Shown in pieces: positions 765-43,775 of a DNA stretch of 64,000 bases (position 1 is its first letter; every line of letters begins with the position of its first letter). A program made the translations under genes and the position numbers. The notes under the pieces were generated by a model that had not been told where the DNA came from, searched no databases, and saw only the letters and a program-made list of their open reading frames with translations. Source of the DNA: Minisyncoccota bacterium (lineage in GTDB: Bacteria > Patescibacteriota > Minisyncoccia > Phycocordibacterales > PALSA-1337); NCBI GenBank assembly GCA_041671485.1, contig JBAZBL010000004.1:14445-78444 (forward strand). Direction: 5' to 3'.

Positions 765-980
765 TTAAACGAGTGATTTTAACGACGTAAGAACCTTACC
801 TTTGCCTTGCTTGAATTCTAATTCGCTTCTTTCCAAAGCACGAAGCAAACGATCTTCTTTATAAGAACGAATAAGATGTCTGATGTATTCACTAACAGAT
901 GCAAAACCACCACTTTTGGTTTCATCTCTAATCTCTTCAGCCATAGAAGCTGGTAGGGAAATGTTTATGATATTTCTCAT
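765..980 (-). CDS. Antitoxin (ribbon-helix-helix/ParD-like) partnering the RelE-like toxin
   Basis: 71 aa. The N-terminal ISLPASMAEEI beta-strand motif is RHH-like. It sits 1 nt upstream of the toxin in the same orientation. Confidence 0.5.
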   Translation of the reverse strand: MRNIINISLPASMAEEIRDETKSGGFASVSEYIRHLIRSYKEDRLLRALERSELEFKQGKGKVLTSLKSLV

Positions 981-12278: not shown

Positions 12279-12279
12279 A

Positions 12280-14902: not shown

Positions 14903-15742
14903 ATGACTAATATCAAAGGTAACATGAAGATCCGGCCAAAAAAATCTCTTGGGCAACATTTCCTCAATTCAAAGCATGTACTTGAACGGATTATTGATAC
15001 TGCAAAAGTCGAAAAGGGTGGGGTTGTATTGGAGATTGGACCTGGTATGGGGGTTTTGACACAAGAATTATTGAAAGCTGGTGCCAAAGTTGTTGCTATT
15101 GAAAAAGATTCTTCAGTAATTCCTTTCTTGGAGAAAAAATTCTCTAAAGAGATTGAGAACGGGCAACTGAAATTGATAGTAGATGATATATTGGAGATCA
15201 ATCTGAATAATATTGGCACTAATCTGCAATCGAAAATCATCAATTCATCATATGCAATCGTTGCAAATATACCTTATTACATAACTGGTGCAATATTGGA
15301 AAAATTCCTAGAATATGAACCCCGTCCAGAGAAAATAGTACTACTGGTACAAAAGGAGGTCGCAGAAAGAATCATAGCAAGAAATGGTAAAGAGAGCATA
15401 TTGTCCATATCTGTAAAAGCCTTTGGTACACCGAGGATGATAGCCAAAGTTCCACGCGGAGCATTCACGCCACCCCCAAATGTAGATTCTGCAATTCTTG
15501 AAATATCAGATATTTCAGATGACAGATTTTCCTCGAAAAGTGTTGAAATAAAGCACTTTTTTGACATTTTGAAAGCTGGCTTCGCTCACAAAAGAAAATT
15601 TCTGATACGAAATTTAGAGACTATTTCTAATAAAGAAAAATTAGACTCTGTTTTTACAACATTAAATATCAATAGAAAAGTTAGGGCCGAGGAGATCAAA
15701 CAAGATCAATGGCTTGATATAACTAAATTAATTTTTGAATAA
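14903..15742 (+). CDS. rsmA: 16S rRNA (adenine1518/1519-N6)-dimethyltransferase
   Basis: KSLGQHFL, VLEIGPG.G and NIPY motifs of KsgA. Confidence 0.92.
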   Translation: MTNIKGNMKIRPKKSLGQHFLNSKHVLERIIDTAKVEKGGVVLEIGPGMGVLTQELLKAGAKVVAIEKDSSVIPFLEKKFSKEIENGQLKLIVDDILEINLNNIGTNLQSKIINSSYAIVANIPYYITGAILEKFLEYEPRPEKIVLLVQKEVAERIIARNGKESILSISVKAFGTPRMIAKVPRGAFTPPPNVDSAILEISDISDDRFSSKSVEIKHFFDILKAGFAHKRKFLIRNLETISNKEKLDSVFTTLNINRKVRAEEIKQDQWLDITKLIFE

Positions 15743-15754
15743 TCAATATGATAT

Positions 15755-16090
15755 CTAGAGACTTGAACCGTGATATAAGATAGGCATACCAGCTCCCTTA
15801 ACTACGGTTCCGAGAGTACAAGGGACAGGAACACTTAGAGCCATTCCCAGCAAATATTGTCTAGGATGAGGAACTACTCTCATAAGATATGGTAATTGGC
15901 CCCAATTCCACATAAATTGTTGTGGGCCTCTAAAAGGCACTTGAACAGTTAGAAGTAATCCATTGTTACACGGTTGAGTCATAGTAACCGCGCCACCAAA
16001 AGGCATTATTGCTGCATTTGAAATAACTGGTAATGAAATAGCTATAATTAAAACTAATATGATCAAAGCTAATATAAATTTATTATTCAT
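15755..16090 (-). CDS. Small secreted Cys-containing protein, divergently transcribed from the secretion cluster
   Basis: The internal Met at 16090 gives a signal peptide (MNNKFILALIILVLIIAISLPVISNA), a mature region of ~85 aa and two Cys. The upstream 93 nt of the long ORF looks non-coding. Confidence 0.4.
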   Translation of the reverse strand: MNNKFILALIILVLIIAISLPVISNAAIMPFGGAVTMTQPCNNGLLLTVQVPFRGPQQFMWNWGQLPYLMRVVPHPRQYLLGMALSVPVPCTLGTVVKGAGMPILYHGSSL

Positions 16091-16173
16091 AATACAATCA
16101 TAACATATATATCTTTGCACTATCCACAAAAAATAGGGCTTTGTACTCTTTTCTGCGATATAATTATAACAGT

Positions 16174-17025
16174 ATGCATGCATTTTACCCGCGCAAACAG
16201 ACAGTGGTGATTTTTATACTATGCATAGTTGTCGTAGTTCTAGTTACTTGGTATGCAAAGCCAGACTGGAAAATAGGAGAAATAAATTATAAGGGTCAAA
16301 ATGCAATAGAGAGTGGAAAATACGATCCTGTAATTGCTGATGATAATACAAGCTGGAAAGACCAATTTATATCTAGCTCAACAGGAACAATCAACTTCAA
16401 GTCGGCAAGTTCCGATAGTACTGCAAAGAATGAACCACTTACTTTGACAGATCAATTGGGTAGAGACTTCTTCGCGAAATTTATGCTTATGCAACAAGGT
16501 GGTATCGTGAATGACCCTACAAAGATACAAGAAGTCACAAATCAGTTGATATCAGACAGCATTACAAATGCACCATATCCAGAAACAATTTCAATAAATA
16601 AAATAAAGGTAAACAATAATATAATTACTAGTCAGATGCTCAAAAATTATGGAGACATGGTTATCAAGATACTAAACAATAATATGCCAAAACAAAATGA
16701 AGCAGAGATAGCAGATAGAGCATTGAGCGAAGATGATATGGAAATATTAAAAGAGATAGATACAAATATTTCTGGTTATCAATCGGCTCTATCGGCTATG
16801 TTGAATACCCCTGTACCTAAACCACTTTCGGAATACCATCTAGGTCTAGTAAATGGGGTAAATATTCAACTTTTCAATTCAAAGGCACTTCGTCGCCTAG
16901 ATACAGACCCTGTTTTGGCACTGAACGCCATAAACTATGAGATTTTAGGACTGCAGAAAATAAATGATTCTTTGGCATCTATTAAACAATATTTTATAAC
17001 AGCCGGAATACCATTTGGCTGGTAA
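16174..17025 (+). CDS. Hypothetical signal-anchored protein, first gene of the T4SS-like cluster
   Basis: An N-terminal hydrophobic anchor followed by a Ser/Thr/Asn-rich ectodomain. Confidence 0.45.
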   Translation: MHAFYPRKQTVVIFILCIVVVVLVTWYAKPDWKIGEINYKGQNAIESGKYDPVIADDNTSWKDQFISSSTGTINFKSASSDSTAKNEPLTLTDQLGRDFFAKFMLMQQGGIVNDPTKIQEVTNQLISDSITNAPYPETISINKIKVNNNIITSQMLKNYGDMVIKILNNNMPKQNEAEIADRALSEDDMEILKEIDTNISGYQSALSAMLNTPVPKPLSEYHLGLVNGVNIQLFNSKALRRLDTDPVLALNAINYEILGLQKINDSLASIKQYFITAGIPFGW

Positions 17026-17029
17026 TACA

Positions 17030-18733
17030 ATGAATATTTTCAATTTAACAAAAATAAAGATTCCAATAATTATCCTATGTATCGTTGCAATTGTAATTGT
17101 CACTATACCATTTCCAAAAAATGTAAATGCTCAAGAGGGCGCGGCTAGTAGTGCTGCCACAGTACCAATAAATACAGGTCTTGACTACAACACTACAATG
17201 CAAAAATTGAAGAGTTTTACTCTGGACAAGATTGCATCAATGATTGCAAAGAGGATACTTCATCAAATGACAATAAGTATTGTAAACTGGATCAATTCTG
17301 GCTTTGAAGGCAGTCCTGCATTCCTGACCAATCCTGAATCATTCTTCATGGATGTTGGGGATCAGATAACAGGACAATTCATATCTGAAACGGGCGTATT
17401 GTCCAAGCTTTGTACACCATTTGGCCTAGATCTTCGTCTTTCATTGGCTATTGGACAAGCACAGTTGATGGATAAGAGATATGCTTGTACTTTGTCCACT
17501 GTCATAGACAATGCCATGAATGCAAGAGCAAACGTCTCTATCAATAGTAGTCCTGGTGGTGCAACGATAGGGGATATAGTCAATGGAAATATACTCAACA
17601 ATCCAAATCAATTGAGTGTAAATGGGAGAAGTGCCAATAACACTAGAGATTTTATTGAGGGTAATTTCTCGAAGGGTGGTTGGCCAGCATTTATAGCACT
17701 TACTAGTCAGCCACAAAACAATCCTACAGGTGCATGGCTCATGGCACAAAGTGATTTGCAGTCATCAATTGCTAGAAAACAAAATGCTATAAATACAGAT
17801 CTCAATCGTAGTAGTGGATTCTTATCATGGCCAAAATGCGAAACACTTGAGACTCTCTATCCAGGAGATACACCTAATTATTCTTATGCATCTGATCCTA
17901 GATATACATTGAAATCAGGCTCTGACGGAAGTACAATCGTACAAGTCTGTTCTACACAAACTCCGGGTTCAGTAATCTCCGGAACACTCGAAAATCAACT
18001 TGGTAGTGCTGCAAGAGAATTGGAATTGGCAGACAATATAAATGCAATCATTGATGCTCTAGTTTCCCAAATGGTCACAAAAGTCTTGAGTAATGGTCTT
18101 ACATCTGTAAGTAGTAATACTGGTGGACGTGTCTCTGTTACGAGTCAAATACAGGCAAATTCGGTTTCGACTTACAATCAACAGATAATCTACAATCAAT
18201 CTCAAGCATCGGATATGACCTCTAGGGCATTGACTTCACTCCAAGAATACAAAGCTATATATGATAGGGCAATAGCATTGGTAAGAGATAGTCAACAAAG
18301 GTTTCAAACTGCAAGGTCGTGCTTTGTAAATAAGATAAATATACCATCTTCATCATTAACAATTAATGAAATATCATTTGCACAAAGGCAGATGACAAAT
18401 ATAGATGCTATTTTGAATCAAAGATTTCAACCGACCCTATCTCAATTGACGATAAAGAGTGCAGAAGCTGAAACAAAAATAACAAGTATCAGAAACTTAC
18501 CGAGCAATCAGCTTTCTTATACTACATATAATGTTCAGGGGCAAACAGACAATTATTCAAATGCTGTTGATGCGGCAATATCTGTCAATTCAAATGCTGC
18601 AGAAAATATGGTCTCTGCACAAAAAGATTTGGATGCTGTAGATTTGCAGGTAACTGGATGGAATGCAGAGGCGACATCATATCAGAGATCGTGTGATTTG
18701 TTCCCAGAACGTATCAAAGATCCTAGCCATTAA
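17030..18733 (+). CDS. Large secreted hypothetical protein
   Basis: Signal peptide (IPIIILCIVAIVIVTIPFP...NAQEG) plus a 540-aa Ser/Thr/Asn/Gln-rich region. Confidence 0.45.
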   Translation: MNIFNLTKIKIPIIILCIVAIVIVTIPFPKNVNAQEGAASSAATVPINTGLDYNTTMQKLKSFTLDKIASMIAKRILHQMTISIVNWINSGFEGSPAFLTNPESFFMDVGDQITGQFISETGVLSKLCTPFGLDLRLSLAIGQAQLMDKRYACTLSTVIDNAMNARANVSINSSPGGATIGDIVNGNILNNPNQLSVNGRSANNTRDFIEGNFSKGGWPAFIALTSQPQNNPTGAWLMAQSDLQSSIARKQNAINTDLNRSSGFLSWPKCETLETLYPGDTPNYSYASDPRYTLKSGSDGSTIVQVCSTQTPGSVISGTLENQLGSAARELELADNINAIIDALVSQMVTKVLSNGLTSVSSNTGGRVSVTSQIQANSVSTYNQQIIYNQSQASDMTSRALTSLQEYKAIYDRAIALVRDSQQRFQTARSCFVNKINIPSSSLTINEISFAQRQMTNIDAILNQRFQPTLSQLTIKSAEAETKITSIRNLPSNQLSYTTYNVQGQTDNYSNAVDAAISVNSNAAENMVSAQKDLDAVDLQVTGWNAEATSYQRSCDLFPERIKDPSH

Positions 18734-18735
18734 AA

Positions 18736-20622
18736 ATGATAAATCATTATTTGAAAAAATTTGTTCCAACCATCTTTATCGCACTTTTTGTGTGGTTGTG
18801 GATGACAGATGTGACATATGCAGCAGGCATATTTGACCTCGATCCTTGGAATTTTGCTTGGGCTTTAATGTCAAACCTAATGCAAGTATTCTTGACTATG
18901 ACTTCATGGTTGGTTGGTCTTACTGGAACACTGATGAATGTATCCATAGGTCTCACAACAAACATAGGTAGTTTCGTGAATGATACTCCTGTGATCTATA
19001 CAGTTTGGGAAATCATAAGAGATCTTGCAAGTATGGTTTTGATATTCTTTATACTTTGGGCTGCTATTCAGATGATCGTTGGTATCAAAACTCCAAATTT
19101 CAATAGTTTGATCTTCAGCATCATAATAATGGGTATCCTAATAAACTTTAGTTTCTTTTTCACTAGAGTACTGATAGATGCATCAAATATAGTATCTCTA
19201 CAATTCTTGAATGCTATTGCCCCCGGAAAAGAATACGTGAGTGGAAGTGGTATATCAGACTGGACATTAAAAGGTTTCAAAGATGGTGGTTTATCTGACA
19301 TATTTATGGGGTCTCTTGCAGTGAATAAATGGTATGACAATGCAAAGATAATAAATACATCAGCGTCTGGCGTCAATACAACTTCCAATCAGGATGCGGC
19401 ACCAATCAGAATAGTACTTGTAACACTTGGTGGAATGATCGTAATGATATTTGCTAGCTTGAGTTTCTTGGGCGCAGCTGCTGCAGCAATATTGCGTTTG
19501 GCAATGCTCATATTCTTGCTTGCCTTTTCTCCTATATGGATAGCTTCAATTGCTATGCCACAACTCAAGGATCTTACAAAAGATTGGTTTTCTCAATTCA
19601 AAGCTCATTTGCTATTCTTGCCTGTTTATTTGATGTTCATGTATGTTGCAATAAGAATACTGACAGAAAGCAAATTGAATATGCTGACAACTACAAATAG
19701 TGCTTTCTTGTCTCAAGATAATTTGAATGGGTATATAACTCTATTCGTCGGCTTTGCTATCGTCATAATAATGCTAAATCTGCCACTTATTGCAGCAGTA
19801 AAAGTCGCTGGAGCAGGATCGGCCATGTCTGAAAAGTGGTTCAAGGGTGTAAAAGGTGCTGTGGGCGGATGGATGGGGAGGAGTACTGTTGGTCGTGTGG
19901 GTTACAGTGCTGGAAAATACATTAACAAAACTTTTCCAGGATTCTCAAACACTTTGGTTGGTCAAAGCTTAGTACAGAATACAGCTGGAAGACTTGCTAA
20001 TGCTAGATTTGGTGGTCAAACATCAGCCACTGCGGCTGCCACCGCAGCAAGAACACGCGCATCTGCAAGAACAACTGCAGCTAGAAATCAAAATAATATT
20101 ACCGATCTCCAAAAAGCAGTTAACACAAACGACTCCGCATTAGCTAGATCGGTACTCAATAGAATGACAAACAGTGAAAAGGCTCAGTTGGACAAAGATA
20201 AATTCCTTAAAAAAGATGTAGTCTTGCAACATCTTGATGAAGGCGCTTTCAAGGCAATAGACGGAAATAGTACCCTAACCGATGCAGACAAAGCAGACAT
20301 CTCCAATACTCGTATGGGACTTCTTAAGAGTTCAGTTTCAAGTGGAAATACGGCAGTAATCGCAAACATGATGAAGAATGCCTCAGGGGCAACTCTTGCA
20401 AAACTCGACGATCCTAGCGACCCCACAAACCACGCAACTGTTAGAGATCAAAGGTTTATAACACATATTAGACAATCCCATCTCAAAGATATGGACCACA
20501 TTGACCCTAGTTTGAGAAAAGCTATCGGTGATGAAATTTATAACAATCCAACTTCTGGACCAACGGGAGGTGCCCACCCAGCATTTGATCATGTAAATAA
20601 AAATCGTGGCATATGGGGTTGA
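18736..20622 (+). CDS. Polytopic membrane protein, VirB6/TrbL-like candidate with a C-terminal soluble extension
   Basis: More than six predicted TM helices in the first 350 aa and a hydrophilic tail; position within a VirB4-containing operon. Confidence 0.4.
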   Translation: MINHYLKKFVPTIFIALFVWLWMTDVTYAAGIFDLDPWNFAWALMSNLMQVFLTMTSWLVGLTGTLMNVSIGLTTNIGSFVNDTPVIYTVWEIIRDLASMVLIFFILWAAIQMIVGIKTPNFNSLIFSIIIMGILINFSFFFTRVLIDASNIVSLQFLNAIAPGKEYVSGSGISDWTLKGFKDGGLSDIFMGSLAVNKWYDNAKIINTSASGVNTTSNQDAAPIRIVLVTLGGMIVMIFASLSFLGAAAAAILRLAMLIFLLAFSPIWIASIAMPQLKDLTKDWFSQFKAHLLFLPVYLMFMYVAIRILTESKLNMLTTTNSAFLSQDNLNGYITLFVGFAIVIIMLNLPLIAAVKVAGAGSAMSEKWFKGVKGAVGGWMGRSTVGRVGYSAGKYINKTFPGFSNTLVGQSLVQNTAGRLANARFGGQTSATAAATAARTRASARTTAARNQNNITDLQKAVNTNDSALARSVLNRMTNSEKAQLDKDKFLKKDVVLQHLDEGAFKAIDGNSTLTDADKADISNTRMGLLKSSVSSGNTAVIANMMKNASGATLAKLDDPSDPTNHATVRDQRFITHIRQSHLKDMDHIDPSLRKAIGDEIYNNPTSGPTGGAHPAFDHVNKNRGIWG

Positions 20623-20636
20623 TAAATAATTAAATT

Positions 20637-21173
20637 ATGTCTATATCTACAAACATACCGGACCAAATAAAAAAAGTCGCATCATCTATCGAGTTATCAG
20701 ATAGTATTGTCAAAATTGGAAATCGTTTCAGCCTACATGTAGATCAGATCGGAGAGCTCGGGGCTGAAATCAGAGATATTCTATTTGGCTTTAGTAAGTC
20801 ATCAGATTTCGTCAAACATGTTTCTGAACGACTCGAGGTAAATCGAGACTTGGCTGAAAAGATCGCAATTGAAGTAAATAAAGAAGTATTTGCTGTGATA
20901 AAAGCAAAGCTACAGAAAAATGAATCTTCAAAGGACGAACAAGATAATAAAGACTATTCCCCTCTCGAACGCGCCGGGAATATGGAGATCATTGAGGAAA
21001 ATGAACACGTTGATGCTATTCCTGACCATATGCTAAATGCTCCAGATGGAAAAACAGAAGAAAAACCAGCACTAGTAAAAGAGAACACAGGGGAAGGAAA
21101 AGGGGGTAGGATAGAAGAAAAAAGTATTGATGGAGTAAGTTTTAGTGATAGATATAGAGAACCTGTAGAGTAA
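20637..21173 (+). CDS. Hypothetical acidic soluble protein
   Basis: 178-aa ORF, co-directional and tightly spaced within the cluster. Confidence 0.4.
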   Translation: MSISTNIPDQIKKVASSIELSDSIVKIGNRFSLHVDQIGELGAEIRDILFGFSKSSDFVKHVSERLEVNRDLAEKIAIEVNKEVFAVIKAKLQKNESSKDEQDNKDYSPLERAGNMEIIEENEHVDAIPDHMLNAPDGKTEEKPALVKENTGEGKGGRIEEKSIDGVSFSDRYREPVE

Positions 21174-21213
21174 TACAGTGCGAAAAATGTAATCCATAGG
21201 GTATAATATAGTA

Positions 21214-21651
21214 ATGCGTTTCCAAGTGCCCCAATTTATAGAGGTTGAAGACAAAATATTTGGTCCTTTGACTTTGAAACAGTTCATATACCTGGCGGGT
21301 GGAGGAGGACTTTCATTTGTTGCATATATACTCCTCGGAAGTCTGGCATTGTCACTAATACCAATACTTATAATAATGGCAATATCTGTATCTCTCGCTT
21401 TTTACAAAGTCTACAATCATTTTCCACTAGTAAATATAGCCGAATCAGCATTCAAATATTGGAGAGGTGGTAAATTGTATATATGGAAAAAAGAAGACAA
21501 GATGAAAGCAACAACAAGCGCTGCTGCATCAAAGGATGTAAAAAATTATGCTTCTCTAATGGTTCCAAAAATATCCGATAGCAAGTTGAAAGATCTTTCA
21601 TGGAGTTTGGATATCAAAGAGAGTATTTATTCCGATAAAAATCAAAAGTAG
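21214..21651 (+). CDS. PrgI/VirB3-like small membrane protein of Gram-positive-type T4SS
   Basis: VPQFIEVEDKIFGPLTLKQFIYLAGGG followed by a double TM hairpin matches the PrgI family. Its position directly upstream of VirB4 is canonical. Confidence 0.55.
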   Translation: MRFQVPQFIEVEDKIFGPLTLKQFIYLAGGGGLSFVAYILLGSLALSLIPILIIMAISVSLAFYKVYNHFPLVNIAESAFKYWRGGKLYIWKKEDKMKATTSAAASKDVKNYASLMVPKISDSKLKDLSWSLDIKESIYSDKNQK

Positions 21652-21684
21652 CACTGTGTCAAACAAAATATTAATTGAATAATC

Positions 21685-21712
21685 TTGGATCCCCGCTTTC
21701 GCGGGGATGACA
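21685..21712. repeat. 28-nt GC-rich hairpin repeat tggatccccgctttcgcggggatgacac, identical to the copy at 29800-29827
   Basis: Exact 28/28 match. The ATCCCCGC/GCGGGGAT stem is followed by an ATG that serves as a start codon here. Confidence 0.8.
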
Positions 21713-22354
21713 CCATTGAATATGACAACCAAATCCAAAACAACACAAGACTTTGTACCCATTCAGGAAATACGTGATGGTGTAGTAATACTCCGAAATG
21801 GTGGCATGAGATCTGTCATACTCGCATCATCATTAAACTTTGCACTCAAATCGGCTGATGAACAGGCATCTATCATGTATCAATTCCAGAATTTCCTCAA
21901 TTCACTGGACTTTTCTATACAAATATTTATACAATCAAAAAAGCTAGATATCAGGCCATATATCGCTCTTTTGGAAGAGAGATACAAAGAGCAAGTATCA
22001 GAACTTATGAAGATACAGGTGCGTGAATACATAGAGTTCGTAAGAACATTTGTCGAAAATACAAATATCATGACAAAGAATTTCTTTGTTGTTATACCTT
22101 ATGATCCGCCTATCATAGGTGGTGGCAAGAATCCTATCTCAAGATATTTTCCTGGGAAAGACAATGTTGGTCCAACACCAGATGAAAAATTCCAAGAATA
22201 TCGCACCCAGCTAGAACAGAGGGTTTCTGTTGTGGAACAAGGACTAGTGAGGTGTGGTGTCCGAACTGCAGAACTTGGTACCGAAGAAGTGGTCGAACTA
22301 TTTTATAAATTATTCAATCCAGGAGAGACAGAGAAGCCGATACAAATCACATGA
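21707..22354 (+). CDS. VirB4/TraC N-terminal-domain-like protein (separate ORF)
   Basis: The F.PIQEIRDGVV.LRNGG.R.V pattern resembles the N-terminal domain of VirB4/CagE ATPases. It ends 46 nt before the ATPase ORF, in a different frame. Confidence 0.45.
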   Translation: MTPLNMTTKSKTTQDFVPIQEIRDGVVILRNGGMRSVILASSLNFALKSADEQASIMYQFQNFLNSLDFSIQIFIQSKKLDIRPYIALLEERYKEQVSELMKIQVREYIEFVRTFVENTNIMTKNFFVVIPYDPPIIGGGKNPISRYFPGKDNVGPTPDEKFQEYRTQLEQRVSVVEQGLVRCGVRTAELGTEEVVELFYKLFNPGETEKPIQIT

Positions 22355-22400
22355 ACCATGCACAATTATTACATCATATATCAATAGAGCAATCAATAAT

Positions 22401-24215
22401 ATGAGCATATTCAATAAATTATTTGGTAAGAAAGATCAATCGCCGATTGTTTCGGTTTTGCCCGAAGAAATATATCAGGCGGGTATCTTGGAATTGAAAG
22501 ATGTAATAGCTCCGTCTGCACTCAAGGTCAGTCCAAAAGAATTGAACCTAGGAGAAAAGGTGGGTAGAACACTATTTGTAATATCATATCCACGATTCTT
22601 GCAAGAAAGTTGGTTTGCACCGATCATCAATCTGGACAAAGTATTCAACGTCTCTATCTTCATACATCCCGTTGATACTGCAAAGATATTGCGTCATTTC
22701 CAGAAGAAGGTTGCAGAGGTACAAAGCCAAATATCTAGAAGAGAAGAGAAGGGTTTGGTGCGTGACCCAGGACTAGATACAGCATATCAGGATCTCGAAT
22801 CGTTGAGAGATCAGTTGATGCAGGCTCAAGAGAGACTATTTGATGTAGGAGTATATATAACACTGTTTGCAGATTCCGAAGGAGATCTCGATAAACTCGA
22901 ATCTGAAATCAAATCTATACTTGAATCAAAACTAGTATATGTAAAACCAGCACTTTTCCAGCAAGAACAAGGATTCAAGAGCGTGTTGCCACTTGGAGAC
23001 GATCAATTGAATGTTCATTCAAAGCTCAATTCTTCACCACTTTCAAGTCTATTCCCATTTGTATCATTTGACCTAACGTCAGATAAGGGAATACTGTATG
23101 GCATAAATAGACACAATTCATCACTGGTTCTTTTTGACCGATTCCTTCTTGGTAACTACAACTCTGTAACATTTGCAGTTGCTGGGGCAGGCAAATCGTA
23201 TTGCACAAAGCTAGAGATATTACGCACGCTCATGTTTGATACAGATGTTCTAGTTATTGATCCAGAAAAAGAATATGAATACATGGCAGAAGCAACCGGT
23301 GGCAAATACTTCAATATTTCTCTCAATTCAGAGCACCATATCAATCCATTTGATCTACCAGTACCAAGAGAAGATGAATCTACAAGCGATGTTTTGCGAT
23401 CAAATATAATTAACTTGGTTGGTCTATTCAGGATAATGTTGGGTGGTCTGTCCCAAGAAGAAGATGCGATCATAGATCGTGCAATAACAGAGACTTATGC
23501 ACTCAAAGACATTACTCCTGATTCTGATTTTCGAAATGTTGAACCACCACTACTATCAGATTTTGAAATGGTACTGGGTGGAATGGAAGGCGCCGACTCT
23601 TTGGTTGAGAGATTGTCCAAATATACAAAAGGTACATGGTCGGGCTTTATAAATAGACCTTCAAATATAGATATAAATAAGAAATTTATAGTATTTTCTC
23701 TAAGAGATATGGAAGATGAATTGAAACCCGTAGCAATGTATCTCATAACTCACTATATATGGAATGCTATACGCAAAAATCTCAAGAAAAGACTACTTGT
23801 CATCGATGAAGCATGGTGGATGATGAAGTCCGAAGATACAGCATCATTTTTGTTTGGCCTAGCAAAAAGAGGTCGAAAATACTTCCTTGGTCTTGCAACA
23901 ATAACCCAAGATGTGGATGATTTCTTGAAATCTCCATATGGTATGCCCATCGTCACAAATTCATCTATACAGATACTATTAAAACAGTCGCCATCGGTCA
24001 TTGACTATGTACAGAAAACATTCAACCTTACAGATGAAGAAAAATATTTATTGCTAGAATCAGATATAGGAGAAGGCATGTTCTTCGTCGGACTAAAACA
24101 TGTTGCAATGAAAATAGTTAGTTCATATACAGAAGATCAGATCATCACCACAAATCCACAGCAAGTTATGGATATAAAGAGGGCAAAAAAAGAGCTTGAA
24201 GACGCGGGACAATGA
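22401..24215 (+). CDS. virB4: VirB4/TraE/TrsE-family type IV secretion ATPase (C-terminal ATPase portion)
   Basis: Walker A (FAVAGAGKS), Walker B (LLVIDEAWW) and strong VirB4-family resemblance. The probable start is the MSIFNK Met at 22401 rather than the upstream 22254. Confidence 0.8.
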   Translation: MSIFNKLFGKKDQSPIVSVLPEEIYQAGILELKDVIAPSALKVSPKELNLGEKVGRTLFVISYPRFLQESWFAPIINLDKVFNVSIFIHPVDTAKILRHFQKKVAEVQSQISRREEKGLVRDPGLDTAYQDLESLRDQLMQAQERLFDVGVYITLFADSEGDLDKLESEIKSILESKLVYVKPALFQQEQGFKSVLPLGDDQLNVHSKLNSSPLSSLFPFVSFDLTSDKGILYGINRHNSSLVLFDRFLLGNYNSVTFAVAGAGKSYCTKLEILRTLMFDTDVLVIDPEKEYEYMAEATGGKYFNISLNSEHHINPFDLPVPREDESTSDVLRSNIINLVGLFRIMLGGLSQEEDAIIDRAITETYALKDITPDSDFRNVEPPLLSDFEMVLGGMEGADSLVERLSKYTKGTWSGFINRPSNIDINKKFIVFSLRDMEDELKPVAMYLITHYIWNAIRKNLKKRLLVIDEAWWMMKSEDTASFLFGLAKRGRKYFLGLATITQDVDDFLKSPYGMPIVTNSSIQILLKQSPSVIDYVQKTFNLTDEEKYLLLESDIGEGMFFVGLKHVAMKIVSSYTEDQIITTNPQQVMDIKRAKKELEDAGQ

Positions 24216-24339
24216 TATTACAGATCGCGACCGTCGAGGCGGCGACAAATGTCGACTTGGCGAAGCCAACGAAGACATTTAGTCGCGCCGAGGAGGGAGC
24301 GCTGTGTTTGGAGAAATAGTACTGTGTTATAATTTTGTC

Positions 24340-24774
24340 ATGGAAGAAAAGAAAAAACATCGAATGGGTGTTGGTGCTCTGATATTGCTCACCATAATAG
24401 CTATTATATGTGACACTATTGGGCTAATACCGGGCGTAGAAGATATTGCTGGTACTATATTTTGGGGTATTGCTGCTATCTACTTCTGGGCTTCAGGTAT
24501 GGGAGTGTTCAACGGTCGAAGATTGGCCACAATGTTGGTATCTTGGATCATTGGACTTATACCTATCTTGCAATGGTTGCCACAACTATCTGTAGGAATA
24601 ATAGCAATCTTTCTTATGTTGCGAGCAGAAGAAAAAACAGGTCTTCCAATATCTTCTGTAGCTGGAGGGAAAATAACAAATACAAGTAGTGGGCCGACGA
24701 GACTACCCAACAAAACTGCTCCATTGAATCAAGACGGTATAAGAATGCCAAATAGTGGATTGACAGAGAAATAA
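24340..24774 (+). CDS. Small polytopic membrane protein
   Basis: The probable start is MEEKKKHRMGVG; there are 3-4 hydrophobic helices. Confidence 0.4.
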   Translation: MEEKKKHRMGVGALILLTIIAIICDTIGLIPGVEDIAGTIFWGIAAIYFWASGMGVFNGRRLATMLVSWIIGLIPILQWLPQLSVGIIAIFLMLRAEEKTGLPISSVAGGKITNTSSGPTRLPNKTAPLNQDGIRMPNSGLTEK

Positions 24775-24823
24775 CTCTCCCCAACTATTTTCGCAACTTT
24801 CTCTTATTATTGGTAAAATATAA

Positions 24824-25876
24824 ATGATGAAATCCAAATCTGTACTGACCGTCCTCATATTTGTTTTTTCATATTTACTTTTTCAATTTGCATTTGCACA
24901 AGGGATACAATTGCCCGCACAAGATGTTGATCTGAAAGTTTCCCCAGAAAACCCCATGCCGGGGCAAACACTAACAATAACTGCAGAAAGTTATATCGTC
25001 AGTCTGACTTCATCAAATATTACTTGGAGCTTGAATGGTAATGTATATCAGAAGGGTATAGGTATGACATCCATACAAGTCATTGCACCGGATCTTGGTA
25101 AGAAATTATCAATTGGTGTAAATGCAATAACTGCAGAGGGGGCACAACTCAATGCAGAAATTGATATTACTTCTGGCAATATTGATCTTATTGTTGAAAC
25201 CGATGGTTATGTACCACCTTTCTTCAATGGCAAAATGCCACTTGTATATCAAAATAGTTATAGAATTGTCGCTATACCACATTTGGCCAATTCTTCTGGC
25301 ACTGAATATGATCCAAAGACCCTTGTTTATTCATGGTCAAAAGATACAAAAGTTATGCAGGATGCTTCTGGTTATGGTAAACAAGTATTCTCATGGAAAG
25401 AAGAGATCATACCTAGGTCTAGATTGATAAAAGTCAAAGCAACGACCAGAGATGGTTCGGCACAGGCCGAAAAAACAATAATATTACAAGCAAATAGTCC
25501 TTTTATACAGTTTTATAAAAATGATCCTTTGTATGGACCTATGTATAATAAAGCCATTATAAATAACACCGGTCTTGGTTCTAGTAGGGAATTGTCTATA
25601 CTTGCAGTACCATATGGCTTCAACAAGCCATTTAGTTCAGTTGGTAATCTGCTTTTCTCTTGGTCAATCAATTCTACATCGCAAGATGCTCTATCTACTA
25701 GTCAGTCAATAGTACTTCGTGCTCCAGTAGGAAAGACTGGTTCATCGAATATTGACCTTGAGATAAGGAATGAAAAAGATATACTTCAATCTGCAAGAAA
25801 TGCTTTTTCTATAATGTTTTCTTCTGGAGAAACAGAAATATCAACAGATAATATAAATAATTACAATGGTATATAA
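24824..25876 (+). CDS. Secreted hypothetical protein
   Basis: Signal peptide (VLTVLIFVFSYLLFQFAFAQG) and a 330-aa beta-rich-looking region. Confidence 0.45.
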   Translation: MMKSKSVLTVLIFVFSYLLFQFAFAQGIQLPAQDVDLKVSPENPMPGQTLTITAESYIVSLTSSNITWSLNGNVYQKGIGMTSIQVIAPDLGKKLSIGVNAITAEGAQLNAEIDITSGNIDLIVETDGYVPPFFNGKMPLVYQNSYRIVAIPHLANSSGTEYDPKTLVYSWSKDTKVMQDASGYGKQVFSWKEEIIPRSRLIKVKATTRDGSAQAEKTIILQANSPFIQFYKNDPLYGPMYNKAIINNTGLGSSRELSILAVPYGFNKPFSSVGNLLFSWSINSTSQDALSTSQSIVLRAPVGKTGSSNIDLEIRNEKDILQSARNAFSIMFSSGETEISTDNINNYNGI

Positions 25877-27161
25877 ACATCACAAAAATAAATATTGGTT
25901 GATTTCACTAACAATCGTAATGGCTCTTGGTATCTTTTCAATACAAACAAATATAACAAATTCTCAATCTCTTCCAGAACCTGTCGATCCAAATGCTAAT
26001 ATCTTTGATTATTCTGGTCTTGAACCATTGCCACCGTCAAACGTTTATTTGCCTGCAACCCAACCGACTCAAACATGGCAAAATACTGGAAAAACCTATA
26101 AGCTTCTCGAACCGTTACCGTGTTTGGACTCTCGTATGCCCGACTGTAAAGGCGGACAGATAGAAAACATAGATCTTGGCAACTTCTTTCAATACGCTTT
26201 CAACCTTTTGATAGCACTCTCTGCCGTGGCTGCTGTATTTATGATTGTTTGGGGAGGATTCCAGTATATGACTACAGATTCGTCGCCAGGTAAAAGTGAA
26301 GGCAAAGAGAAATTCAAAAATGCTATTTATGGCCTTCTCATGGTCATTGGTTCATTCCTCATCCTCAAAACCGTCAACCCAAAACTTGTTCAGATACCAG
26401 CTAGCATTCCGCCGGTTAGGGTAGATTCGTCACAGACGCAATCGCCTTTGAGTTTTTTTGATCAGATAAACAGAAAAGCTGAAGAATATAATACCAACCT
26501 GTCAAACATCCAGAATGATTTGATGCAAGCACAAACAAAACTTAATGGTTTATACCAACAAAAAACTGATCTACAGAATCTTTTAAATGGCCCATATGAT
26601 ACAGAATTGGCAGCCACATATGAAGTTCAACTTGAACAAATAAACAGCCAGATAGAACAACAAGAGGCTATAATTATCGGCACAGGAACAAATGAAATGA
26701 TGACACAAAAAGCCATGCAAATAATAAACGCCGACAGTGCCAAAAGAAATTTTCTCGGTGATCCTGCAACACCCAGGGAGATACAGAATAATATTACCGA
26801 GATTGACAACATAAAGACAGATGCGTTAATAGAGCTAGAAAAGTATGGTCAATCTGATATTGTAGAAAAACAAAAACAAGCTGTGATAGATCAGGCAAAT
26901 TATAAAAAAGCAGACATTGAAATAACTACTAGTATTAATGCAATCAATCAAATAAGTGAGACCTGGAAGACAACGGATACTGGTAAATTATTGAGTCCAA
27001 TGCCAGCTTGGACAAAAAACGAAGCTGAAACTGCTTTAAATAATGCTTTGATATTAAAAGGGCAGATGCAAGATCCTGTTCTGCAATCTAAATTGCAAAC
27101 ACAAATAAAAGACCTGAATACTCTACTAAATGAGAGGCTGTATGGTAAACCTTCAAGTTAA
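25866..27161 (+). CDS. Membrane protein with a double-TM hairpin and long coiled-coil tail (weakly pilin/VirB2-like)
   Basis: Two adjacent hydrophobic helices (LLIALSAVAAVFMIVWGG ... LLMVIGSFLILK) followed by a Gln/Asn/Leu-rich coiled coil. Confidence 0.4.
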   Translation: MVYKHHKNKYWLISLTIVMALGIFSIQTNITNSQSLPEPVDPNANIFDYSGLEPLPPSNVYLPATQPTQTWQNTGKTYKLLEPLPCLDSRMPDCKGGQIENIDLGNFFQYAFNLLIALSAVAAVFMIVWGGFQYMTTDSSPGKSEGKEKFKNAIYGLLMVIGSFLILKTVNPKLVQIPASIPPVRVDSSQTQSPLSFFDQINRKAEEYNTNLSNIQNDLMQAQTKLNGLYQQKTDLQNLLNGPYDTELAATYEVQLEQINSQIEQQEAIIIGTGTNEMMTQKAMQIINADSAKRNFLGDPATPREIQNNITEIDNIKTDALIELEKYGQSDIVEKQKQAVIDQANYKKADIEITTSINAINQISETWKTTDTGKLLSPMPAWTKNEAETALNNALILKGQMQDPVLQSKLQTQIKDLNTLLNERLYGKPSS

Positions 27162-27169
27162 TTATTGCC

Positions 27170-28465
27170 ATGAAAAAGCTCATAATCATAATCACAATAC
27201 TGATTCTCGTACTCGCTGGTGCTTTTGCTTATTGGTATTTTTTCTTTCGTATTTCAATTGACACAATTCCAGATGATGGTTCGGCAAATCCAGCAGATTC
27301 TGGTTTTATACCCTTTGACAGGCCAGGAATAGGTACTGGGCGAGGGACGGGAGGTGCAACGACAACAGGTACAGGTACAACACAGGGTGATGTGCCGATG
27401 AGAATACCAGCACTCCGACAGTTGAGTGCAACACCTATTGGAGGATACTCTGCAAGCACTACAGCAAGCACAACCGTTGTTAGGTGGGTAGATAGAGGTA
27501 GAGGCAATATTTATGAGGCTGGGATGGATTCTGTGACAATAAAGACTATATCAAATACACTCCTGCCAAAAGTATATGAAAGTTGGTGGAATAAGAATAA
27601 TACAACATTCATTGGTCAATATATGGCAGGAGACAGTGATGCCGTAACAACTGTTATAGCAAACATAATAAAAAGGCCTTCTATTACAACATCTTCTGGA
27701 ACATCATCACCGAATATACAAAATCCCAGTGAAACTATCTATGAATTGAAAGGTAAGATTGTATCTGGAAATGTAATAGGCACAGCGTCTTCTCCAAAAA
27801 GAGATAGGATATTAGTGATCACAAATGAAAATAATAATGCTGTCGGTTATATCTCAAACTTTGATGGCAGTAAACAAGTTCAAATATTTAGCTTGCCATT
27901 TGTACAACTCGTAGTTGAATGGCCAGAAGAGAATACAATAGCAATAACTACAAAAGCCGGTGCTTCATATCCTGGATATTTGTACTTTATCAATACAAAA
28001 ACTGGTGTAGTCAAATCTATTCTCGGAAATATACCCGGCCTAATCACCAAAGTTAGCAAAGATGCAAATAAAGTTCTTTATTCTTCTGGAGACAACAATA
28101 ATATAAGTACAGCATTATTTGATGTAAAAACCAAAAAAACTAGTCTTGTAATATTCAAAACACTGGCTGATAAGTGTGTTTGGTCAAGTACTTTCAAAGA
28201 AAATATCTATTGCGGAGTATCTTCACAAATACCAAACGGTACATATCCAGATACCTGGTATCTAGGAATAAACTCTTTTATAGATAGCGTATGGGCCTTG
28301 AATTCAAAAGATGGCGACGTTAGACAGGTGGCAGATCTCTTGAATCAAAACAGCGTTATTATAGACATAATAAATCCTAGTCTTAGTGAAGATGAGAATT
28401 ATCTTTTCTTCATGAATAAGAACGATATGTCACTGTGGTCGTTGGATCTGGTGGCATCAAACTAA
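27170..28465 (+). CDS. Signal-anchored protein with a Gly/Thr linker and a beta-propeller-like domain
   Basis: N-terminal anchor, a GTGRGTGGATTTGTGTT low-complexity linker, then repeated strand-rich segments. Confidence 0.4.
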   Translation: MKKLIIIITILILVLAGAFAYWYFFFRISIDTIPDDGSANPADSGFIPFDRPGIGTGRGTGGATTTGTGTTQGDVPMRIPALRQLSATPIGGYSASTTASTTVVRWVDRGRGNIYEAGMDSVTIKTISNTLLPKVYESWWNKNNTTFIGQYMAGDSDAVTTVIANIIKRPSITTSSGTSSPNIQNPSETIYELKGKIVSGNVIGTASSPKRDRILVITNENNNAVGYISNFDGSKQVQIFSLPFVQLVVEWPEENTIAITTKAGASYPGYLYFINTKTGVVKSILGNIPGLITKVSKDANKVLYSSGDNNNISTALFDVKTKKTSLVIFKTLADKCVWSSTFKENIYCGVSSQIPNGTYPDTWYLGINSFIDSVWALNSKDGDVRQVADLLNQNSVIIDIINPSLSEDENYLFFMNKNDMSLWSLDLVASN

Positions 28466-28487: not shown

Positions 28488-29240
28488 TCAAACTTTAGAA
28501 GTCATCAAATATTTTCTTTTGACGAATAATTCTTGTCCGAGGGTAAATAATGCACTTACTGACCAGTAAAGGGCAATAGTTGATGCTGCTTGTGGGAATT
28601 TGGCTGGTATAAGCCAATATATAGAAGCAAAAGCCAATATTGGCAACATATATTTCATCTGTTTATTCATCGAAGCTGCAATGTCTGGCATACCTTGGTT
28701 CTGCTTACCGGTATTTGATGATGTCTGAAATTGTTTTCCAGCCAAAGAATAATGTAGCTGAATATATTGTGCTATTGCAGTCAAAATAGCCAGTATCAAA
28801 CTTGGTTTTGTCAGGTCTATCAAACCAAGAAACATTGTATTTACTATTGGTATATCTATAAATGAATATAAATATTCTGGATTTATAGTAGGAATAATCT
28901 TATAGAAAACAGACAGTAGAGCTAGAAGTATAGGCAATTGAATAATAATCAAAAGAATACCAGCAAAAGGTTTAACGCCTTTGGCTTTGTACAATTCCAT
29001 TGTCTTTAGTCCTTGATTTTGACGATCATTTGCATATTGTTCTTTGATTCTCCTTGTCTCTGGCTCTATTTCTTTCATTTTTATCTGTGTAATTATTGAG
29101 ACTTTGGAAAGATGAAATAGTGCCAATTTTACAATAAGTGTAAAAATAATAACTGCGACACCTAGATCTGCCCACGGCAAAAAATCCATAATACCGACGA
29201 GGCCATTGTAAAGTGGTAAAAATATAAGATTGTGGTACAT
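28488..29240 (-). CDS. yidC: YidC/Oxa1-family membrane protein insertase (short form)
   Basis: 250-aa polytopic protein in the conserved rpmH-rnpA-yidC position. Confidence 0.75.
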   Translation of the reverse strand: MYHNLIFLPLYNGLVGIMDFLPWADLGVAVIIFTLIVKLALFHLSKVSIITQIKMKEIEPETRRIKEQYANDRQNQGLKTMELYKAKGVKPFAGILLIIIQLPILLALLSVFYKIIPTINPEYLYSFIDIPIVNTMFLGLIDLTKPSLILAILTAIAQYIQLHYSLAGKQFQTSSNTGKQNQGMPDIAASMNKQMKYMLPILAFASIYWLIPAKFPQAASTIALYWSVSALFTLGQELFVKRKYLMTSKV

Positions 29241-29247
29241 ATTTTAA

Positions 29248-29601
29248 CTATACACTATTTGGCTTTATAGTTCGACTTTGGGGTTTTGCAAAAATTGAGA
29301 TCAAGTCTTTTTTCATTTCTTCCTGTTTTATGCCAGAAATATCGCTTTTTGCAATAATGATTGCGTGTAAATTGGTTGGAATAGTATCAAAAATGCTTCC
29401 AACGGCTTCATACATCACCCTTCTTGATCGGTTTCTCTTTGATGCTTTACCTAGTATTTTCTTTGGCATAACAACTGAAACTTTGGTGTATTCTGCATCT
29501 TGTAGGACTCTTATAAGAAAAAACTTAGACGGAGTCAGTTTACCCCTCTTTATAACCTCGTCAAATTGCTTGGTATTTAACCTTTGGGATTTTTTTAGCA
29601 T
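29248..29601 (-). CDS. rnpA: Ribonuclease P protein component
   Basis: 117 aa, basic, with a conserved RNR motif; immediately follows rpmH. Confidence 0.8.
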   Translation of the reverse strand: MLKKSQRLNTKQFDEVIKRGKLTPSKFFLIRVLQDAEYTKVSVVMPKKILGKASKRNRSRRVMYEAVGSIFDTIPTNLHAIIIAKSDISGIKQEEMKKDLISIFAKPQSRTIKPNSV

Positions 29602-29602
29602 A

Positions 29603-29737
29603 CTAAACAGAGATCTTCCTCCTTCCTTTGGCTCTACGTCTAGATATAGCCTTCTTTCCGCCAGGAGACTTCATCCTCATCCTAAATCCGTGCTTTTTTG
29701 CTCGCTTTCTTCTATTTGGTTTATACGTAAATGACAT
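29603..29737 (-). CDS. rpmH: 50S ribosomal protein L34
   Basis: Hand-translated 44 aa: [44 protein letters not shown]. Below the 60-aa ORF-track cutoff. Confidence 0.85.
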
Positions 29738-29915
29738 AGTGAGATAAGTATTGCATTTTTATTATCTCCATGCAAATTAGAGAATCAATTCTCTAGACGT
29801 GGATCCCCGCTTTCGCGGGGATGACACAATAAAATAGTTCTCCACAGCTTATCAACATACTTTTGATGTCTCCACAAGTTCCCAAAATTATAAACAGGTA
29901 TATAATGCAAACAAT
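29738..29915. promoter_or_regulatory. dnaA upstream region with three co-oriented DnaA-box-like 9-mers and the 28-nt hairpin repeat; candidate oriC part 1
   Basis: TTCTCCACA (29838), TTATCAACA (29849) and GTCTCCACA (29868) against the TTATCCACA consensus. Confidence 0.5.
29800..29827. repeat. Second copy of the 28-nt hairpin repeat (see 21685)
   Basis: Exact match to 21685-21712. Confidence 0.8.
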
Positions 29916-31262
29916 ATGAATGACCATGAACAAATATGGCAAACAGCTTTGCTTGAGATGCAATCTATTGTTTCTTCGGCAAATTATTCTACATGGGTAA
30001 AGACAACAAAGATTGTACGCGAAGAGGGTGGTACTATTTTCTTGGGTGTTCCAAATGAATTTACACGACAGTGGTTATTGAAAAAGTGCCACAACTCTAT
30101 TTTGCGTATATTGAGACAATTGAATGAACACGTGAGGGCTCTTGAATACGTCGTTCTGCGAGATGAGGAGCAAAAAAGAGAAGAGGCCAGAAAGAAATCT
30201 TCATTGGCCCCGACAATGGCAATGCCTCTTGAAAATTACTATATCAATAAAGAAGATAATCTAAATTCTAGATATACTTTTGAGAATTTTGTTGTTGGCC
30301 CATTCAATGAGTTGGCCCATGCGGCTGCACATACGATAGTAAAAGCGCCTGGTCAGACGTACAATCCACTATTTATATATGGAGGTACAGGAAGGGGCAA
30401 AACTCATTTGATACAAGCAATAGGGAATAGAGTGAAGGAGCTTTTCCCAAATAAAAAAGTGTTTTATCTCACAGCCGAACGGTTTGGATCCGATTTTTTC
30501 GACGCACTTCAGACAAACAAGGCTCAACAATTCAAAGAAAAATACAGAAAGTACGATGTTTTGATAATGGACGATATCCAATTCTTTTCTAGTAAAGATA
30601 AATTCCAAGAAGAATTCTTCCACCTATTCAATGTTTTTCATGATAGCTCTAGACAATTGGTATTTTCGGCCGATCGCCATCCAAATATCATACCCGACCT
30701 CGAAGACCGTGTACGTGGCAGGTTCAATGCTGGTATGGTGATAGATATATCCGAATTGGACAAAGAATCACGCATGGCCATAATCAAGGCCAAATGTGCA
30801 ATGAGTAATATCACCTTGCTTGAAGAGATAGTTGACTATCTGGCTGTTGAAATTGAGGATAATATAAGAGAAATTGAAGGTATTATAAATATAATAACCC
30901 ATAATACTTTCCACAAAGGACGAGTTTTGAATCTAAATGAGATAAAGACTATACTAAAGAACAGCATAAAACCCAAAAAGATGCTCTCTGTAAAGGATGT
31001 AGTCAAAACTGTTTGCACTTTTTATAATATAGAGGAGGACAATATATATAGCAAAACTAGGAAAAAAGAGGTGGTTAAGCCACGTCAAGTGATTATGTAT
31101 ATTCTTAGAGAAGATTATAATATTTCATTCCCTTCAATAGGTGATAAACTTGGTGGTAGAGACCATACAACGATAATACACTCTTATGAAAAAGTTAAAG
31201 ATGATTTGAAAAGTGATAATTTACTAGCACAAGAAATATTACAATTAAGAACCATGCTTTGA
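29916..31262 (+). CDS. dnaA: Chromosomal replication initiator protein DnaA
   Basis: AAA+ motifs (GGTGRGKTHL; Walker B LIMDDIQF) and the C-terminal DNA-binding domain. Confidence 0.95.
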   Translation: MNDHEQIWQTALLEMQSIVSSANYSTWVKTTKIVREEGGTIFLGVPNEFTRQWLLKKCHNSILRILRQLNEHVRALEYVVLRDEEQKREEARKKSSLAPTMAMPLENYYINKEDNLNSRYTFENFVVGPFNELAHAAAHTIVKAPGQTYNPLFIYGGTGRGKTHLIQAIGNRVKELFPNKKVFYLTAERFGSDFFDALQTNKAQQFKEKYRKYDVLIMDDIQFFSSKDKFQEEFFHLFNVFHDSSRQLVFSADRHPNIIPDLEDRVRGRFNAGMVIDISELDKESRMAIIKAKCAMSNITLLEEIVDYLAVEIEDNIREIEGIINIITHNTFHKGRVLNLNEIKTILKNSIKPKKMLSVKDVVKTVCTFYNIEEDNIYSKTRKKEVVKPRQVIMYILREDYNISFPSIGDKLGGRDHTTIIHSYEKVKDDLKSDNLLAQEILQLRTML

Positions 31263-31507
31263 TTTATATAACTTAATGTTGGTAACCTGTTGATAAGATG
31301 TTAATAAAATTGTTAATAATTTATTAAAAAACAATATTATAAAAGTTATTATAAAAATAAATACAAGTTATCAGATAAATATAATGTTTCAAATATAGAA
31401 AATAGTAAGATAAACATAAACATATAAACAATCACTTTAACTTCTCAACATATCCACACTACTAATAATAAATATGTGTATATATTTTAAAAAATAATTT
31501 AACTATT
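31263..31507. promoter_or_regulatory. Very AT-rich dnaA-dnaN spacer with DnaA-box-like motifs; candidate oriC/DNA-unwinding element
   Basis: ATATCCACA (31451) and TGTTGATAA (31289, reverse orientation), both 8/9 to consensus. The 245-nt spacer is almost devoid of G/C. Confidence 0.5.
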
Positions 31508-43737: not shown

Positions 43738-43775
43738 TTGTCAACAAAGCCAGCTTGATGTATCATCTTAATCAT

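Follow-up and report, generated by a model that had tools for sequence, protein, structure and literature searches.

A chromosomal type IV secretion gene cluster near dnaA in a member of the Paceibacteria

The contig JBAZBL010000004.1 of the Minisyncoccota bacterium assembly GCA_041671485.1 was found to carry, in the 64,000-nucleotide stretch analysed here (contig positions 14,445 to 78,444, hereafter the window, to which all coordinates refer), a block of eleven co-directional, tightly packed open reading frames (ORFs) at 16174-28465 on the plus strand that includes genes for a type IV secretion system (T4SS). From its components, relatives and location, the cluster is probably a chromosomal, vertically inherited Patescibacteria-clade T4SS of Paceibacteria, derived from the MPF_FATA class and no longer part of a conjugative element. 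This system has already been described for the phylum, between 2023 and 2025, and the locus is a good example of it and not a discovery. The genes, here designated g1 to g11, are as follows.

g1, 16174..17025 (+): membrane-anchored protein of 283 aa with a predicted extracellular all-helical bundle, first gene of the block, no family
g2, 17030..18733 (+): secreted or anchored protein of 567 aa, with a conserved Cys-containing N-domain and a predicted C-terminal three-helix bundle, no family
g3, 18736..20622 (+): VirB6/TrbL-like polytopic membrane protein, 'extended VirB6', from orthologues, topology and position
g4, 20637..21173 (+): small acidic cytoplasmic protein of 178 aa, no family, variably conserved
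g5, 21214..21651 (+): PrgI/VirB3-like protein with two transmembrane (TM) segments, from PF12666 and topology, beside the VirB4 genes
g6, 21707..22354 (+): TrsD-like, stand-alone homologue of the VirB4 N-domain, 215 aa, from NCBIfam matches
g7, 22401..24215 (+): VirB4 ATPase of the monoderm CD1110 type, without the N-domain that g6 supplies
g8, 24340..24774 (+): small polytopic membrane protein with 3 hydrophobic segments, its slot conserved and its sequence fast-evolving
g9, 24824..25876 (+): secreted protein of 350 aa, with a signal peptide ending AFAQG
g10, 25866..27161 (+): VirB2-like T4SS pilin domain, with a signal peptide, two TM segments and a variable coiled-coil C-terminal extension
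g11, 27170..28465 (+): membrane-anchored protein of 431 aa with one N-terminal TM segment, last gene of the block

The intergenic distances from g1 to g11 are, in order, 4, 2, 14, 40, 55, 46, 124, 49, -11 and 8 nt. An initial annotation of the window, made from the letters alone, had described eleven co-directional, tightly spaced genes, and this description is confirmed with gaps of -11 to +124 nt; its topology descriptions likewise agree with a hydropathy scan. The scan gave a single N-terminal hydrophobic segment each for g1, g2, g9 and g11, about 6 segments ahead of a hydrophilic, roughly 270-aa tail for g3, 2 segments for the PrgI-like g5, 3 for g8, and a signal-like segment plus 2 TM segments for g10. 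Related loci were obtained by a search of one genome per GTDB species, which returned at least 503 VirB4 relatives; the best 80 loci were compared by tblastn of all window genes, and 38 of them had full flanks. These best 80 loci all come from metagenome-assembled genomes (MAGs) of Paceibacteria/Parcubacteria, labelled as Taylor-, Zambryski- or Campbellbacteria, with some bins in ENA labelled 'Saccharibacteria'. The g1 and g2 products are 100% identical to the 'hypothetical proteins' WCW03_01400 and WCW03_01395 of an NCBI Candidatus Paceibacterota MAG.

The ATPase encoded by g7 matched the NCBIfam VirB4-like CD1110 family with 371 bits (cut-off 325) over model positions 178-732 of 752, and Pfam returned P-loop_TraG (88 bits), AAA_10 and DUF87. 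The Walker A motif AVAGAGKS lies at nt 23175-23198 and the Walker B motif LLVIDE at nt 23793-23810, and the start codon was placed at ATG 22401 because relatives align from residue 1 of this form. The preceding gene, g6, matched the NCBIfam VirB4_plasma model (Mbov_0397 family) at positions 98-233 with E 1.8e-11, the TrsD model with E 1.3e-6, and also positions 1-117 of the CD1110 model, so that g6 and g7 tile one VirB4 model as two ORFs. The two are separate ORFs in 79/79 related loci and occur there in all three relative reading frames, by which a frameshift or pseudogene is ruled out and the TrsD/VirB4 two-gene arrangement is taken as ancestral. Thus, of the initial description of a VirB4 split into N-domain and ATPase ORFs, the VirB4 assignment and the two ORFs were upheld by the profile matches, while the sequence comparison points to a conserved arrangement of TrsD plus VirB4 and not to a disruption.

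Upstream of these, g5 matched Pfam PF12666 with 41.6 bits (cut-off 27), so that the PrgI/VirB3 call of the initial annotation held in a profile search. Assignment of g3 as VirB6-like is less direct. The window copy had no Pfam or NCBIfam match and its family profile found no VirB6 in the PDB; of the positional orthologues, 7/54 matched TrbL/VirB6 PF04610 (best E 6e-5), and the gene precedes PrgI and VirB4, in the slot that VirB6 occupies in a Clostridium MPF_FATA plasmid. The earlier VirB6-like call is thus tentative: it is supported through orthologues only, with no family match for the window copy itself, and topology and gene position fit it.

The pilin domain of g10 had been noted initially as a protein with weak pilin-like features, and the signal turned out to be stronger than this: residues 110-161 matched Pfam T4SS_pilin PF18895 with 34.6 bits (cut-off 26.6), and among the orthologues 48/51 matched PF18895 and 3 matched TrbC/VirB2. 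Furthermore, 25/51 matched NF045849, the 'Mbov_0395 family pilin-like conjugal transfer protein' of Mycoplasma integrative and conjugative elements (ICEs), with a best E of 1.5e-7, and 5 matched the neighbouring MMCAP2_0566 family. Because of these matches, pilin-like proteins with two TM segments are not confined to Patescibacteria where monoderm T4SSs are concerned; as judged by profile similarity, this qualifies the published statement that MPF_FATA systems are without VirB2-like proteins. Conservation is limited to residues ~101-180, and the orthologues are 210 to 628 aa long.

The location of the cluster was examined together with its neighbours.

uvrD: left flank, next to ksgA
14903..15742 (+): ksgA, rRNA adenine dimethylase (PF00398, E 1.1e-56), left neighbour, in the same place in related loci
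28488..32617: yidC (-), rnpA (-), rpmH (-), dnaA (+) and dnaN (+), right-hand neighbours with Pfam matches, their order kept in related loci
29603-29737 (-): rpmH, ORF between rnpA and dnaA
29916-31262 (+): dnaA, right flank

The Pfam matches and the rpmH ORF bear out the initial statement that the block abuts yidC-rnpA-rpmH and dnaA. The order uvrD-ksgA-[g1...g11]-yidC-rnpA-dnaA-dnaN was present in essentially every related locus with enough flank. Across the 80 species genomes VirB4 is 77-92% identical, and in the loci with full flanks it was found in 38/38 with a median identity of 79% (range 77-92%). The same 38/38 loci contain TrsD (g6, median 62%), DnaA (56%), PrgI (g5, 53%), KsgA (50%) and DnaN (48%), as well as g2, g3, g9, g10 and g11 (median identities 29-37% each); g1 was found in 28/38 loci (median 27%) and g4 in 18/38 (median 32%). 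VirB4 identity exceeds DnaA identity in 38/38 loci and is also above that of UvrD, KsgA, YidC and DnaN, a level of conservation that indicates purifying selection unusually strong for a secretion ATPase. The GC content is 37.6% in the cluster and 37.4% and 36.1% in the flanks. As position, order and conservation are the same across species, the cluster has the character of a core, vertically inherited and strongly selected machine and not the pattern of a mobile element: no boundaries of such an element and no patchy distribution were seen, the block occupies the same slot between housekeeping genes across species, and its GC content equals that of the flanks. The view of the initial annotation that it is core-chromosomal was thus supported. 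A divergent ORF for a small protein with two Cys residues at 15755-16090, which the initial annotation had noted beside the cluster, was present in 1/80 related loci and is accordingly not part of it.

All window ORFs of 70 aa or longer were scanned against Pfam, and precomputed Pfam annotation of other assemblies of the same organism was used for 10 kb past each end. Neither the window nor these flanking 10 kb contained a relaxase, a VirD4/TcpA coupling protein or a VirB11, a local and not a genome-wide result, in agreement with the absence first noted in and near the cluster. Apart from VirB4, the window has a single secretion ATPase gene.

38196-39869 (-): PilB/GspE-type ATPase, 557 aa, between ruvB and polA, with no adjacent pilus genes

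This protein was ruled out as a VirB11, as it scored 438 bits with the PilB model and 49 bits with VirB11, and on these scores it belongs to type IV pili.

These data bear on the possibility that the cluster serves an ICE or a degraded plasmid as its apparatus for DNA transfer between cells. In favour of this, each part that could be recognised has its ancestry in conjugation machinery, and an integrated island with a serine recombinase lies 15 kb away, at 43.8-59 kb. However, no relaxase or type IV coupling protein (T4CP) is encoded within ~84 kb, the chromosomal slot between housekeeping genes is identical in dozens of species, the composition follows the flanks with VirB4 more conserved than DnaA, and the island is a separate unit, bounded by tRNA-Lys and without T4SS genes. 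This explanation is largely refuted and is considered highly improbable.

Six conserved accessory genes are without a family (g1, g2, g4, g8, g9 and g11) and their products are uncharacterised in the published T4SS papers. In line with the initial remark that family-less components could be lineage-specific, the system includes lineage-specific envelope proteins. The AlphaFold2 model of g1, built from an alignment of 81 sequences, had a predicted local distance difference test (pLDDT) score of 85; in it a TM helix leads through a disordered linker to an ectodomain, residues 88-280, that is predicted with confidence to be all-alpha. In many homologues the linker contains a bacterial TSP3 calcium-binding repeat. 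By topology g1 was the best candidate for VirB8 but was ruled out, since the ectodomain is predicted as an all-alpha bundle and not as an NTF2 fold.

The second gene, g2, had 568 homologues, all without a name. In its N-terminal half, which shows strong conservation, W87, G94, P96, C128, C153, C270 and C307 are invariant; AlphaFold2 modelled this part poorly (mean pLDDT 68 for the whole protein), whereas the C-terminal three-helix bundle at residues 370-557 was confident. No structural relative and no plasmid-encoded homologue of g2 were found, and the sequence profiles of g1, g2 and g3 gave nothing significant against the PDB. As a candidate VirB1 hydrolase g2 was rejected, as 41 orthologues gave no hydrolase signal and one isolated DUF4141 match; its similarity to TraC, in a comparison with VirB5/TraC, was indistinguishable from that to generic helical bundles.

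Of the remaining accessory proteins, g4 has no TM segment and no family match, and Asp and Glu make up 21% of its residues. Sequence homologues of g8 were found in close relatives only, and in 53/72 loci the gap between VirB4 and g9 held an ORF of 60 aa or more that has two or more hydrophobic segments. The secreted g9 has invariant W68, W171 and W280 at intervals of about 105 aa, and it gave weak Ig-like signals (Hoc, E 0.0012; in orthologues BiPBP_C 8/62, Ig_3 5/62 and PKD_3 3/62), so that it probably consists of three Ig-like or beta-sandwich repeats. The g11 orthologue profile matched many TolB chains weakly (E 0.016-0.2), a PD40 repeat was detected in 3/54 orthologues, and C336 and C348 are invariant. 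Although the signals are weak, g11 is probably a TolB-like beta-propeller; the earlier beta-propeller-like label is in keeping with the TolB and PD40 signals, and nothing stronger was obtained for it.

Several observations weigh against the interpretation as a Patescibacteria-clade T4SS that has left conjugation behind. The TrsD and VirB4 N-terminal scores of g6 are under the full-length curated cut-offs of those families, and the VirB6 label of g3 is the weakest of the component calls, as its support comes through orthologues only. No VirB8 signal was obtained from any cluster gene other than g1 in Pfam, NCBIfam or profile searches. Likewise, no VirB1-like hydrolase domain was found in the eleven cluster genes or the g2 orthologues; the closest amidase to the cluster is encoded at 60341-61597, 32 kb away. 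The C-terminal tail of g10, about 260 aa long and variable in sequence and length among orthologues, is atypical for a polymerising VirB2, and a true pilus is therefore not assured. Finally, a VirD4-like gene may be present elsewhere in the genome, as it is in most Patescibacteria (PMC12102498), which makes arguments from absence weaker.

The literature on the phylum nonetheless describes a system with which the cluster can be matched part by part. In a survey of 3,035 Patescibacteria genomes, Quiñonero-Coronel et al. (2025) found 2,425 VirB4s that form a monophyletic clade nested in MPF_FATA (PMC12102498). In that survey TrsD was the T4SS component most often recovered, usually beside virB4; PrgI/VirB3, VirB6 and PF18895/VirB2-like pilins were common near virB4; and VirB8 was seldom found and was not clade-defining (PMC12102498). 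Relaxases were nearly absent, and VirD4-like genes, present in most genomes, were mostly far from virB4 (PMC12102498). In Paceibacteria and Microgenomatia the virB4 locus lies near dnaA, dnaN, rnpA, ksgA and rpmH (PMC12102498). The cluster shares with this clade VirB4, a separate TrsD, PrgI/VirB3, a putative VirB6-like protein and a PF18895 pilin, as well as the lack of a nearby relaxase or T4CP and of an outer-membrane core, and the chromosomal, origin-proximal location, its neighbours dnaA, dnaN, rnpA, ksgA and rpmH being exactly those published for Paceibacteria. No essential difference was seen. The locus has a single long-tailed pilin, whereas arrays of 2-11 pilin genes are common in Saccharimonadia and Microgenomatia, and no recognisable VirB1-like hydrolase, whereas VirB1 homologues are associated with virB4 in Paceibacteria (PMC12102498). 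Placement in the clade was made here by proxies, namely VirB4 identity (77-92% to Paceibacteria, 29-37% to plasmids), gene content and locus.

Among known systems outside the phylum, the MPF_FATA systems (CD1110/CD1112/CD1115 type; TrsD/TrsE of pGO1; PrgI of pCF10) share the CD1110-type VirB4 and the order VirB6-PrgI-x-VirB4, and the TrsD-type split is present in the pGO1 subclass. The closest VirB4s from outside the candidate phyla radiation (CPR) are encoded on Actinobacteria and Firmicutes replicons, with 29-37% identity, and are plasmid relatives. The MPF_FATA plasmid systems differ in carrying VirD4, a relaxase, a soluble lytic transglycosylase (SLT)/VirB1 hydrolase and a single-chain VirB4, and in being without a pilin. 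In the Clostridium botulinum plasmid pCDC3875 the order is VirD4 - x - VirB6 - PrgI - x - VirB4 (797 aa, unsplit) - x - SLT hydrolase, and by this comparison VirD4 and VirB1 were lost, VirB4 is split, and a pilin and extra ectodomain proteins were gained in the cluster. The T4SS of Mycoplasma ICEs, with its pilin-like Mbov_0395 and VirB4 Mbov_0397, provides the best match of g6 (the Mbov_0397 model) and a score of 254 bits for g7, all scores here being under the family cut-offs; the Mycoplasma systems sit on mobile ICEs and conjugate. Thus the initial reading of the block as a minimal Gram-positive-type T4SS agrees with its monoderm, MPF_FATA-like components as identified by profile, in a Paceibacteria/CPR genome.

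A DNA-importing T4SS without relaxase, VirD4 or VirB11 is known in the ComB system of Helicobacter pylori, which is of the diderm MPF_T type with a VirB7-10 outer-membrane core. ComB has been cited as a precedent for the T4SS of Patescibacteria (PMC11665869). It differs from the present cluster in being diderm and having that core, the cluster being of monoderm type, with import only putative.

If the parts act as their homologues do, VirB4 docked on VirB3 and VirB6 would pull the pilin from the membrane and polymerise it into a surface pilus or tube, and the ectodomain proteins g1, g2, g9 and g11 may provide wall-spanning or host-contacting parts. The apparatus would then operate at the interface between epibiont and host and not in DNA conjugation, since no relaxase or T4CP was found locally and the locus has a fixed place in the chromosome. 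By transposon sequencing, Wang et al. (2023) found the T4SS of the Saccharibacterium S. epibionticum (SEML1_0006-0019) to be essential for epibiotic growth; its pilins are essential, no coupling or relaxase protein is recognisable, and the system is similar to Gram-positive conjugative ones (PMC10633639). Nucleotide uptake has been put forward as a candidate role of the T4SS (PMC11665869), and in S. epibionticum competence is dispensable and the T4SS essential (PMC12857230, PMC11665869). For a cultivated member of the phylum, uptake of host RNA has been reported, along with tubular structures that 'may be T4SS pili' (bioRxiv 10.64898/2026.06.21.733656).

On this basis a conduit for the uptake of host macromolecules is tentatively favoured as the function of the cluster. 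Three points lead to this preference: the lack of a local substrate receptor (T4CP), the contrast between dispensable competence and essential T4SS in S. epibionticum, and the RNA uptake and possible T4SS pili of the cultivated relative (bioRxiv 10.64898/2026.06.21.733656). The initial annotation had preferred export, in which the epibiont, on contact, would deliver proteins or effectors to the surface or the interior of the host cell. Wang et al. thought that the Saccharibacterial system 'may instead export proteins' (PMC10633639), exporters without a T4CP exist, such as Ptl and Brucella VirB (PMC12102498, PMC12857230), and many secreted proteins without a family are encoded next to the T4SS genes. 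Export nevertheless appears somewhat less likely: the locus yielded no candidate for an effector, a chaperone or a substrate receptor, and the family-less secreted proteins keep their order and presence across loci as structural parts would, unlike variable effectors. The structural reading of the initial annotation was right and its interpretation is partly supported, every element of the latter being already in print (PMC12102498, PMC10633639).

An adhesive pilus or attachment organelle that moves no cargo was also weighed. VirB4 with VirB3, VirB6 and VirB2 is the set needed for canonical pilus biogenesis (PMC12857230), and an adhesin role is conceivable for the ectodomain proteins of the Ig-like, propeller and helical kinds. 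Adhesion is, however, already served by type IV pili, the PilB-type ATPase at 38196-39869 being a case in point, and the extreme conservation of VirB4 together with the essentiality in Saccharibacteria suggests something more than just another adhesin among several, so that adhesion alone seems improbable.

Uptake, as the preferred function, can be extended to a more specific and doubtful proposal, in which g1, g2, g9 and g11 together with the tailed pilin would form a Paceibacteria-specific organelle for VirB4-driven penetration of the host envelope and import of host RNA or other macromolecules. If true, this T4SS would work chiefly as an importer and would be the principal means by which these bacteria feed. 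Patescibacteria account for a large share of bacterial diversity, and in the single species examined so far the T4SS is essential. The locus leaves the general picture of the Patescibacteria T4SS as before; its value is that of a clean, complete and conserved 11-gene parts list for Paceibacteria, with six family-less components, for structural and genetic work.

As for expression of the block, a scan for promoters and terminators gave no enrichment over shuffled sequences. A TATAAT hexamer lies 6-9 nt 5' of the ATG of g1, PrgI and g8 (within 16154-16173, 21194-21213 and 24320-24339), positions which, from the sequence, hint at leaderless starts of the sub-operons g1-g4, g5-g7 and g8-g11. In relatives TAnAAT was somewhat commoner before PrgI (33/75) and g9 (36/76) than before other genes. 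A GC-rich hairpin, CCCCGC-TTTC-GCGGGG, is located at 21690-21705 directly before the TrsD start codon, in a genome of 37% GC. It was rejected as a conserved element, since it is not conserved in the first 25 related loci that were checked; there, PrgI and TrsD follow each other with almost no gap.

A scan for DnaA boxes returned 32 matches where 22±4 were expected, a number reached in 2/100 shuffles, and one-mismatch boxes included two 5' of dnaA and two in the dnaA-dnaN gap. As the scan gave no clear cluster at dnaA, the origin is placed by gene content only. The cumulative GC skew has its minimum near 10-12 kb, and gene orientation flips from mostly minus to plus at ~12.6 kb, ~17 kb from dnaA and the stretch 29740-29915 directly 5' of it.

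The region 43775-59103 is a probable integrated island, 15 kb from the cluster. At its start tRNA-Lys (43775-43852, +) abuts the gene of a large serine recombinase (43811-45424, -), which is CcrB-like (E 1.6e-34), and the ~15 kb that follow consist mostly of family-less genes, with a lower GC content of 0.32-0.34 at 48-56 kb. In the Pfam scan of the window the island was without T4SS, relaxase or T4CP genes. It encodes a DUF5655 protein (55273-56193), an EcoRI-like adenine methylase (56236-57285) and a GmrSD_N+HNH nuclease (57287-58396). Two adjacent island genes, at 51019-51927 and 51945-53147, encode membrane-anchored, family-less proteins that start with the same 14 residues, MHLWTYIKSRNETL, which suggests a local duplication with diverged ectodomains. 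Elsewhere in the window, toxin-antitoxin-like pairs were observed at 11985-12600 (-), with Gp49 and HTH_3, and at 506-980 (-), with a ribbon-helix-helix (RHH) protein and a partner, and an H+-pyrophosphatase is encoded at 9698-11683 (-).

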